64,000 nucleotides of DNA. It comes from an uncultured Pelagibacteraceae bacterium (GTDB lineage Bacteria > Pseudomonadota > Alphaproteobacteria > Pelagibacterales > Pelagibacteraceae). Below are positions 35,546-37,735 of the stretch, one piece after another; within the stretch, counting starts at the first letter, position 1; each line of letters begins with the position of its first letter. Made by a program: the position numbers and the translations under genes. The notes beneath the pieces were generated by a model that did no database searches, was not told where the DNA came from, and saw only the letters and a list, made by a program, of their open reading frames with translations. Location of the stretch: assembly GCA_902537845.1 (NCBI GenBank), contig CACBDC010000006.1, positions 129 through 64,128 of the forward strand. The letters run 5' to 3'.

Positions 35546-36629
35546 TTCCTATAGCTTTCCTATTTGCTAAGGATCCACAAGATGCATTTATGTCTCTACC
35601 CCTACTTCTTCTAAATAGAGAAAGAAAACCTGCTTCTTGAATTTTTTTAGAAAACTTATCTATATTTTCTTGAGTTGCTGGTTTGAAATCTTTGTTGGAT
35701 AGAGGATTAAACTCGATCAAATTTAATTTTGAAGGAACTTTTTTCATAATCTTTATTAATTCTTTTGCATGATCATTTGTTAGATTTTCATCTAAACATA
35801 TCCATTCAATAAAAATAGGTAATTTTGTTTTTTCATAATATTTTTTTAGCTGTGGTAATAATGAATTAATAGAATATTTATCATTTATTGGCATTAATTC
35901 TGATCTATGTTTTGGTATTGAGCTATGTAAACTCCATGCAAGATAAACATCTAGCTCATTTGCAGCCCACTCTATTGCATCTAAATTATCTTTTTTTATT
36001 CCAACTCCAACAGTGCTGACTGTGATCCTAGTTCTTCCGTATTCTAAGCCATCTTTATTTTTTGAGTTATCAATTGCTATTTTAACATTATCTAAATTTA
36101 AAAAGGGTGAACCTTCGCCCATTAATACTTGATTGGTTATTTTTTTCTGTGTTGACCAATCATTTATATAATCTTTACTTAAAATAATTTGTGAGATTAT
36201 TTCTCCCGGTGATAAATTTCTTACTAATTTTTTTGAAATTTGAGCTGTTGCGCAAAATTCACAAGAGAGATAACAACCCACTGATACAGATAAACAAATT
36301 GTATATCTGCTTTGCGATTTATCCGGAATGAGGACTGTCTCTACATTACGTTTATCTTTAAGCTCTAAAAGAAATTTTATAGTACCATCCTTAGATTTTT
36401 GAACGTCTATAATTTTTGGTTTTTCTAAACTAATCAAATCTTTGATCTTACCTCTGAGATCAGCTCCAAATGTTGTAAGCTCATCAAAACTTTTAATATT
36501 TTTTTTATAAACTGCATTGAAGAGTTGTTGTGATCTCATCTTTGCTTTTTTCGGTTCAACTTCTCCTTTTTCAATTAAAAAAGCTTTTAATTGATCAAAA
36601 TTAAGATCATAAAAATTTTGTTTTTCCAT
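35538..36629 (-). CDS. rlmN: radical SAM 23S rRNA/tRNA methyltransferase RlmN (divergent)
   Basis: SKDGTIKFL, VETVLIP, CYLSCEFC, ITVSTVG, SLH, NLIEFNP, RGRDINASCG. Confidence 0.88.
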   Translation of the reverse strand: MEKQNFYDLNFDQLKAFLIEKGEVEPKKAKMRSQQLFNAVYKKNIKSFDELTTFGADLRGKIKDLISLEKPKIIDVQKSKDGTIKFLLELKDKRNVETVLIPDKSQSRYTICLSVSVGCYLSCEFCATAQISKKLVRNLSPGEIISQIILSKDYINDWSTQKKITNQVLMGEGSPFLNLDNVKIAIDNSKNKDGLEYGRTRITVSTVGVGIKKDNLDAIEWAANELDVYLAWSLHSSIPKHRSELMPINDKYSINSLLPQLKKYYEKTKLPIFIEWICLDENLTNDHAKELIKIMKKVPSKLNLIEFNPLSNKDFKPATQENIDKFSKKIQEAGFLSLFRRSRGRDINASCGSLANRKAIGNG

Positions 36630-36651
36630 TGAGAGGATATTAAAGACTTGA

Positions 36652-36673
36652 GTGGGGATTTTAAAGTCCCCAC
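36652..36673 (-). terminator. terminator-like hairpin after the 63-aa gene
   Basis: GTGGGGA..TCCCCAC inverted repeat. Confidence 0.7.
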
Positions 36674-36685
36674 CCTATAAAAGTT

Positions 36686-36877
36686 TTAAAGCTGATTTTT
36701 GTCAGTTTTTAAATGCTTCAAAATTTTTCCAGAATTTTTTCCGTTTTTAAGCATATAACCAGCCGTTCCATTAGCGTTAGCCTCGGGGGCTTTTTGGTTT
36801 TTACTTAACTGCATTGAGAGTTTCTGCTCAGCTTTTTTAACGGCAGAATTTCCATACAGTTTGCTAAATCTATTCAT
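36686..36877 (-). CDS. small basic hypothetical protein (63 aa)
   Basis: AAGGAG SD 5 nt before ATG 36877; MNRFSKLYG..ANANGTAGYMLKNGKNSGKILKH. Confidence 0.8.
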   Translation of the reverse strand: MNRFSKLYGNSAVKKAEQKLSMQLSKNQKAPEANANGTAGYMLKNGKNSGKILKHLKTDKNQL

Positions 36878-36894
36878 AGCAACTCCTTTCATTT

Positions 36895-36966
36895 CTACCG
36901 ACTTTGCAACCCTTTATAGGTCCGGCATGTCGAATGCCGAGTCTTTTTTCCCATGACAGATGGGTA
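36895..36966 (-). ncRNA. candidate structured 5' leader RNA (hairpin plus three-way junction)
   Basis: CCCAU/AUGGG hairpin; GACU/AGUC closing stem enclosing CGGCAU-UCGAC-AUGCCG and GACCU/GGGUU stems; GC-rich island in AT-rich DNA. Confidence 0.65.
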
Positions 36967-36971
36967 AGTAA

Positions 36972-36999
36972 ACTTTAATATAAGGTTTATATTTGTCAA
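36972..36999 (-). promoter_or_regulatory. sigma70-like promoter for the leader and 63-aa gene
   Basis: TTGACA-N16-TAAAGT ending about 7 nt before the first hairpin. Confidence 0.55.
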
Positions 37000-37154
37000 T
37001 GGATAATAAGCTTTTAGGAATAATCATTATAGGTTTTGGCCTATTAGTTCTTTTCAGCGAACAAGAATACTCTTGGGTTATATCAGCCATTGCAGTGGGG
37101 ATAGGTTCAGGATTTCTAATACGAAAAAATGAAAAAAATGATATAGACAAATAA
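36999..37154 (+). CDS. uncalled 51-aa two-TM protein
   Basis: MDNKLLGIIIIGFGLLVLFSEQEYSWVISAIAVGIGSGFLIRKNEKNDIDK*; stop is 2 nt before the next ATG. Confidence 0.7.
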   Translation: MDNKLLGIIIIGFGLLVLFSEQEYSWVISAIAVGIGSGFLIRKNEKNDIDK

Positions 37155-37156
37155 AG

Positions 37157-37735
37157 ATGTCTAAAAAAATTTTTATCGTTTACGGCCATCATAATATAAA
37201 AAAATCATTTAATGCCTCGGTAAGAGATATTTTTATCGAAGAGGCAAAAAACTTAGGCCATCAAGTTGATTTAGTTAATTTACACGAAGAAACACCGCTT
37301 CCTTTTTTTGATGGCTCTGGCCCTAATGATCAAATTTTAGATTATAGAAAAAGATTAGAAGCAAGTGATGTGTTATTTATGATTTCACCTTGTTATAATC
37401 TTAGAGCAACTGCAATTTTAGAAAATTGGATTGATTTAACTTTAGCTCCTAAATGGTTTTTCTCATTTAAAAGACTTGTTGGTAATTGGGGTTATCCTGT
37501 TGCAGGTGCGATGAAAGGTAGAAAAGCTATAATGTCGATGTCTTACGGTGGAAATTGGTTTTCAATTCAAACCTGGTTTCAAAATATTCCATTTAGGAGA
37601 ATTAAAGCAGGAGTTTTAAAGCTTGGTGGAATGAAAACAACTTACATAAGATTTTATGAGGTTTTGCCAGGAATGACACAAGAAAAATTTAATTCACATA
37701 TGGAAAAGGTAAGAAAACTAGTGCGAAATTTATAA
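37157..37735 (+). CDS. flavodoxin-like NAD(P)H:quinone oxidoreductase family
   Basis: IVYGH..SFN, SP.Y....AILENWID. Confidence 0.82.
   Translation: MSKKIFIVYGHHNIKKSFNASVRDIFIEEAKNLGHQVDLVNLHEETPLPFFDGSGPNDQILDYRKRLEASDVLFMISPCYNLRATAILENWIDLTLAPKWFFSFKRLVGNWGYPVAGAMKGRKAIMSMSYGGNWFSIQTWFQNIPFRRIKAGVLKLGGMKTTYIRFYEVLPGMTQEKFNSHMEKVRKLVRNL

Follow-up and report, generated by a model that had tools for sequence, protein, structure and literature searches.

The glutamine-I riboswitch (glnA motif, RF01739) is a marine RNA that precedes nitrogen genes and short open reading frames (ORFs), sometimes in tandem (PMC2864571, PMC6212724). It has a three-stem junction. Glutamine-II (Downstream-peptide, RF01704), also nitrogen-linked, precedes short ORFs that carry DUF4278, a domain shared with IF17-like glutamine synthetase inactivating factors. 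Riboswitches can equally be small H-type pseudoknots: preQ1-I, SAM-II and SAM-V are compact and carry an A-rich linker close to the site of ribosome binding. The gltD motif SRC-18-1, described from Selenomonadales and Veillonellales only, is a candidate riboswitch of glutamate synthase genes in which a hairpin covers the Shine-Dalgarno (SD) sequence (PMC8632094). SAR11 itself has contributed the SAR11_0636 element (RF01827), an intergenic RNA with a three-stem junction that is thought not to be cis-acting (PMC2704228), and the RS05825 motif of HIMB5, a candidate with three hairpins before an ORF about 2 kb upstream of rmuC (PMC6429828). These bacteria are described as being without PII and NtrBC, a gap for which Smith et al. 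2013 invoked riboswitches yet to be described (PMC3870248).

We analysed a 64,000-nt stretch of contig CACBDC010000006.1 from an uncultured Pelagibacteraceae bacterium (assembly GCA_902537845.1), hereafter the window. On its minus strand, a promoter-like site, a conserved leader, a conserved ORF and a 3' hairpin form a real unit. The 65-nt conserved leader (49% GC against 31%) is predicted, from comparison of homologous sequences, to fold as two tandem H-type pseudoknots of about 25 nt each (NNAU-loop-C-AUNN, then AAAG and the loop complement). It is a real and apparently uncatalogued RNA, whose fold and class are new although elements of this general kind are known. We regard the motif as a strong riboswitch candidate for nitrogen status.

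The promoter-like site, of sigma-70 type (36972-36999), consists of TTGACA (36999-36994) and TAAAGT (36977-36972) separated by 16 nt, with 10 of 12 consensus matches. Transcription is predicted to start 1-3 nt 5' of pseudoknot unit 1 (36940-36964), in which a CCCAU/AUGGG stem (hairpin 36964-36950) with a CUGUC loop is followed by A6 and by GAC, pairing with GUC of the loop. Unit 2 (36898-36939) has a CGGCAU/AUGCCG stem (hairpin 36939-36923), a UCGAC loop, AAA, and GUCG(G) pairing with the loop; its linker holds an optional hairpin (36908-36922). The SD AAGGAG (36883-36888), invariant among 36 long-form leaders, precedes the ORF (36686-36877) of a 63-aa basic protein that belongs to a SAR11 and pelagiphage family, phrog_32989. 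A GC-rich 3' hairpin of 9 bp follows (36650-36675), beyond which rlmN starts at 36629. All the letters listed in an earlier note on this DNA are present at these minus-strand places. Its promoter, taken alone, does not exceed chance, with 12 such sites in 3 kb against 13.7 expected; the conserved spacing supports it: of 110 host loci, 71 have TTGAC 36 nt 5' of the first hairpin, and 82 have it at 33-39 nt. Its terminator is present as a hairpin of conserved shape, but has no U-run and is not called as a terminator; it may be one, or a 3' stabiliser. Folding of the 99-nt leader alone is no better than that of shuffles (z -0.77). The single-sequence signals are therefore at chance level, yet conservation indicates that the parts of the leader unit are real.

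Metatranscriptome contigs from four runs cover the unit; as they span adjacent genes of either strand too, neither a start site nor expression can be read from them. In many annotations the ORF is prolonged across the leader, giving entries of 81-95 aa (P0001, P0002, P0017, P0035 and others), and this over-extension may have hidden the leader RNA from intergenic surveys. A divergent ORF for a 53-aa membrane-like protein lies at 36993-37154 on the plus strand, its start codons overlapping the -35 box; it is conserved in most g1 loci.

Among the homologous leaders, the repeated unit has a stem of 4-6 bp ending AU/AU, a loop of 4-5 nt ending C, and a linker ending AAA before G and the loop complement; it occurs in 2-4 tandem copies. 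Loop and partner change together: CCAC/GUGG, UCAC/GUGA, UCUC/GAGA, AGUC/GACU, CUAC/GUAG, CGAC/GUCG, UCGC/GCGA and GAUC/GAUC are all found. In 42 short forms both pseudoknot helices are 100% paired and 5 of the 8 pairs show two-sided changes; slid controls pair at 22-36%. Because part of these forms had been retrieved by patterns that fix some letters, we recounted on protein-selected loci only; 20 distinct loop/partner combinations then gave 57 of 60 cells paired, the first position being imposed by the parser. With 37 distinct combinations pooled, 70 of 74 free cells are paired against a shuffled mean of 30.1 (0/100000), a significance that the shuffles overstate since the sequences are related. 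Parsing of the second unit failed for 7 of 71 leaders and was wrong for 2.

The earlier note had instead drawn a three-way junction closed by a GACU/AGUC stem. In 36 sequences this stem is 87% paired, with 18 broken cells and no two-sided change. Its two halves look complementary only for the reason that each is the partner strand of a loop and the two loops are alike. Short forms do without the third hairpin, an optional insert of which locus L104 carries one in each unit. Two tandem pseudoknots thus replace the junction: the pseudoknot pairs covary and the closing stem does not. The spacing of about 20 nt given from that stem to both the SD and the ORF holds for the AUG, 22 nt past it, but not for the SD, which begins after 11 nt. 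The broader suggestion of selection on a structured leader, with an orphan riboswitch as candidate, is borne out by conservation and covariation.

A descriptor search of the window's own genome gave 6 matches, two of which are the window's units. A tandem pattern with 4-nt loops matched 2 of 401 genomes of the phylum, neither with complementary strands. A model (R1) built from the short forms, with pseudoknot pairs left out, scores the window's long form weakly (16 bits). In the 121 genomes of the large genus g8 it found 10 strong matches, all 5' of the protein gene, six of these loci having helped to build it; five weak g8 matches look like chance hits in coding regions.

No Rfam 15 family reaches its gathering threshold on the leader, as the check proposed earlier now establishes; the only match in the window is the SRP RNA (RF00169; 4498-4592, minus strand). 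Ranked by E-value, Rfam gives 7 weak unrelated matches in 36600-37200, all far below threshold. In 40 other loci, no Rfam match falls on the units. The suggested identity with SAR11_0636 fails, as RF01827 matches two other contigs of the genome below its cut-off of 67 (C1:109895-109961, 56 bits; C4:35892-35981, 40 bits; L001 and L002) and none at the leader. The motif resembles preQ1-I, SAM-II and SAM-V in compactness and in its A-rich linker, but its pseudoknot strand is not the SD, the conserved letters and the genes are others, and it comes as 2-4 tandem units. Its gene context is that of the glutamine-I riboswitch, whose fold and sequence are different. Unlike the ORFs behind glutamine-II, the small ORFs behind the motif match no Pfam family, and DUF4278 was found neither in the window protein nor among 24 members of its family. 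The gltD motif is set apart by its described range.

Identity with RS05825 was at first favoured on synteny, the window's unit also lying about 2 kb upstream of rmuC. As far as the description in PMC6429828 goes, RS05825 has an asymmetric internal loop in P2, a P3 8-12 nt before the SD, and no pseudoknot or tandem repeat; the window's leader has an uninterrupted 6-bp P2, and from the end of its third hairpin to the SD there are 19 nt. No listed gene of the protein family lies beside rmuC in g8. On these grounds, as far as a comparison by description allows, we lowered the identity to improbable. A literature search found no description of the motif, which could be an unnamed entry in large motif supplements.

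Within SAR11 and its phages, the motif is closely linked to the small-protein gene. The gene follows the short form at 106 of 119 metagenome loci (at 12 others the record stops too early, and 1 is ambiguous) and at 17 of 18 viral loci. The 241 loci selected by the protein, which include duplicates of one genome, divide into 115 with the pseudoknot pair, 31 with a glutamine riboswitch and 95 with neither; RF01739 was confirmed at L112, L113, L171, L175, L177 and L219. Loop-free patterns in viral scans extended the motif to 2-4 units 5' of unrelated basic peptides of 29-33 and 38-41 aa (L455-L495), two families with no Pfam match in the 4 members tested. Of the 80 viral loci given by these patterns 75 were parsed, and 22 failed the pseudoknot test. 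The short leader has no blastn match in 50,697 annotated phages.

A DNA pattern recurs in the same promoters. GCA-N9-TGC, used for NtrX/NtrC sites in PMC7240162, occurs within 150 nt at 17 of 57 host loci with neither element; for viral loci with a glutamine riboswitch the count is 8 of 29, and for host loci with the pseudoknot 2 of 110. A single pseudoknot was also considered for the leaders of g14, but paired GCA-N9-TGC sites describe them better. A perfect copy stands 5' of an ORF pair in the window's genome, presumably gltD-gltB. Similar GCATA-N5-TATGC-like sites in this genome (G000 C2:67112, C15:13653 and C1:99021) precede genes that we take to be gltD-gltB, an aminotransferase and a solute-binding protein; they are candidates for an NtrX regulon. 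Such sites are also seen in the phage promoters of L149, L150 and L194.

The motif is not confined to SAR11. A search for the unit in another class matched 2 of 401 genomes, one of them real (G786), and in the order of this genome 25 of 151 genomes carry the tandem unit, where a reversed control pattern gave 0. Nine of the 25 units precede gltB (glutamate synthase). At the other 16, three units are directly followed by a glutamine riboswitch, a TorF-like porin and amt, the ammonium transporter; RF01739 was confirmed in 5 of 5 of these riboswitches tested, and protein identities at the loci of this order were checked for 6 ORFs. The pseudoknot unit and the glutamine riboswitch can thus replace each other, before the same small protein, and stand together, with the riboswitch on the 3' side, before porin-amt. 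A small-protein homologue was found in none of five genomes tested in this order (92-97% complete). PII was not found in G000, G786 and G1132; it is present in two of the gltB genomes, so that the RNA is not simply a PII substitute. Both gltB and AmtB are reported to rise under nitrogen limitation in HTCC1062 (PMC3870248).

In two clades a predicted expression platform is clear. In phage-CCAC and L250-type leaders, the 3' strand of the last pseudoknot has an alternative partner in the region of the SD and AUG, and strand and partner differ together between the clades (AAGUGGC/GYKACUU; GUAGGU/ACCUAU). In an energy model that cannot fold pseudoknots, the native pairing beats a swapped control in 14 of 14 leaders of each type, with drops of 7.3 (phage-CCAC) and 4.7 (L250-type) against about 1.2 kcal/mol for swapped ones. 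Leaders of gltB and of the phage peptides were computable in 7 of 10 cases, and all 7 drop by 4.7-5.6 kcal/mol, values that stand without a swap control. The switch is not seen in the long form, g17 and other short forms, where native beats swapped in 3 of 14, 2 of 8 and 4 of 14 leaders; the window leader itself gives 4.1 free against 7.2 committed, or, when its 3' end is shortened, 8.0 against 7.0. Where the small gene follows a glutamine riboswitch, the SD is covered by a pairing in each of the 17 distinct leaders; we infer an OFF response to glutamine. Formation of the pseudoknot is predicted to turn translation on in several lineages, and not in the window's form.

Conserved, covarying structure and a cis position before functionally coherent genes, both found here, are two of the traits of a riboswitch. 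On balance we lean towards the leader being a riboswitch-like sensor of nitrogen status that would turn translation on, as tandem pseudoknots stand before nitrogen genes and small basic proteins. In such a sensor, the near-invariant AU, C-AU and AAAG letters of each unit would build a pocket. A ligand signalling nitrogen shortage would stabilise the last pseudoknot and so pull its 3' strand out of the hairpin over the ribosome site, and the gene would be translated; the 63-aa protein may then be a nitrogen-stress factor, carried by phages too. Since the predicted switch is of the ON type, precedes gltB and amt and can be stacked on a glutamine sensor, we expect a signal of shortage, for which 2-oxoglutarate is our first guess, then glutamate or glutamine. 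We know of no riboswitch for 2-oxoglutarate or glutamate, and a literature search found none. 2-Oxoglutarate is described as a carbon/nitrogen signal (PMC8042125). That the class binds 2-oxoglutarate and forms, with the glutamine riboswitch before amt, an all-RNA gauge of the 2-oxoglutarate/glutamine ratio is possible, and held tentatively. If true, such a gauge would do PII's job in streamlined ocean bacteria without PII, and phages would use a 2-oxoglutarate-binding RNA to time nitrogen-stress peptides. The motif is in any case a concrete 25-nt candidate for the nitrogen-control gap of SAR11, with a short ligand list.

The same small units in 2-4 tandem copies, in the same nitrogen context, could be repeated binding sites of an RNA-binding host protein through which translation follows nitrogen status, with no small-molecule ligand; pseudoknot helices of 3-4 bp with few unpaired conserved letters would suit a protein site equally. 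The mini-ykkC RNA is a precedent that later proved to bind guanidine. Its small repeated hairpins had been read as suggestive of protein binding (Weinberg 2010, PMC2864571). We find a protein site rather unlikely, as one protein common to SAR11 and a distant order would be needed and direct stacking on a glutamine riboswitch resembles a tandem riboswitch; a search for an ANTAR protein matched 0 of 5 genomes, with a control that also matched nowhere. The pseudoknots could otherwise be passive stabilisers of the 5' end against nucleases, regulation being left to promoters and glutamine riboswitches. The first unit does lie no more than about 10 nt from the -10 box or from TATAAATA, a phage late-promoter motif in the sense of PMC9004378, and the window's form is without a predicted switch. 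Passive shielding does not account for the near-invariant letters, for the other order having the units only before nitrogen genes, or for a last strand whose match to the ribosome site is kept lineage by lineage, and we judge it improbable.

Autoregulation, in which the 63-aa basic protein binds its own leader, had been proposed in the earlier note and fits the tight link in SAR11 (106 of 119 metagenome and 17 of 18 viral short-form loci). It is very unlikely given that the unit also precedes gltB, porin-amt and unrelated peptides of 29-41 aa, that no homologue of the protein was found in 5 of 5 such genomes, and that 126 of 241 family loci lack the pseudoknot pair. Least probable of all is that the motif has no RNA fold and acts as a DNA operator or belongs to a coding frame. 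The hairpins are palindromic, callers read the ORF through the leader, and related promoters do contain a real palindromic DNA site; against this stand loops that may have 4 or 5 nt, A-runs that differ in length, frame-shifting indels, hairpins inserted between pseudoknot strands, and G-U pairs on the sense strand.

Sequence comparison shows the ORF to be a genuine gene: among 36 homologues, third codon positions carry most differences (221, against 72 and 19). The 63-aa protein has 86 close relatives; 88 of 151 family genomes match a narrow alignment of it and, in g8, 118 of 121 match a wider one, a few weakly (tallies for g8 include the unpublished genome G633, on which no claim rests singly). 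It matches phrog_32989, a phage family without assigned function, at least 281 viral stretches in a scan of part of the viral set, and 13 annotated phage records, of which 12 are Pelagibacter phages. Searches of Pfam, NCBIfam and PDB sequences gave no family match for the window protein, and its atlas matches are unnamed. The predicted structure is weak (pLDDT 64.6), with an N-terminal helix. Through three interchangeable elements, a family present in most Pelagibacteraceae genomes and many pelagiphages becomes tied to nitrogen control.

Phages HTVC019P and HTVC008M have the protein without the pseudoknot motif; in HTVC008M the family member is unannotated (KC465899.1 18229-18354; L248 2464-2626) and lies between the genes for the DNA end protector and the tail tube initiator. 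In one subfamily (L114-L140, L383, L385-L403) the gene stands directly behind the end of another, presumably iscA/sufA-like, and is probably leaderless, as the -10 box lies a few bases 5' of the AUG; its g8 members have a promoter with paired GCA-N9-TGC sites. At L143, two copies of the small gene (G103:C2 253887 and 258026) with equal scores lie about 4 kb apart, through duplication or an assembly artefact.
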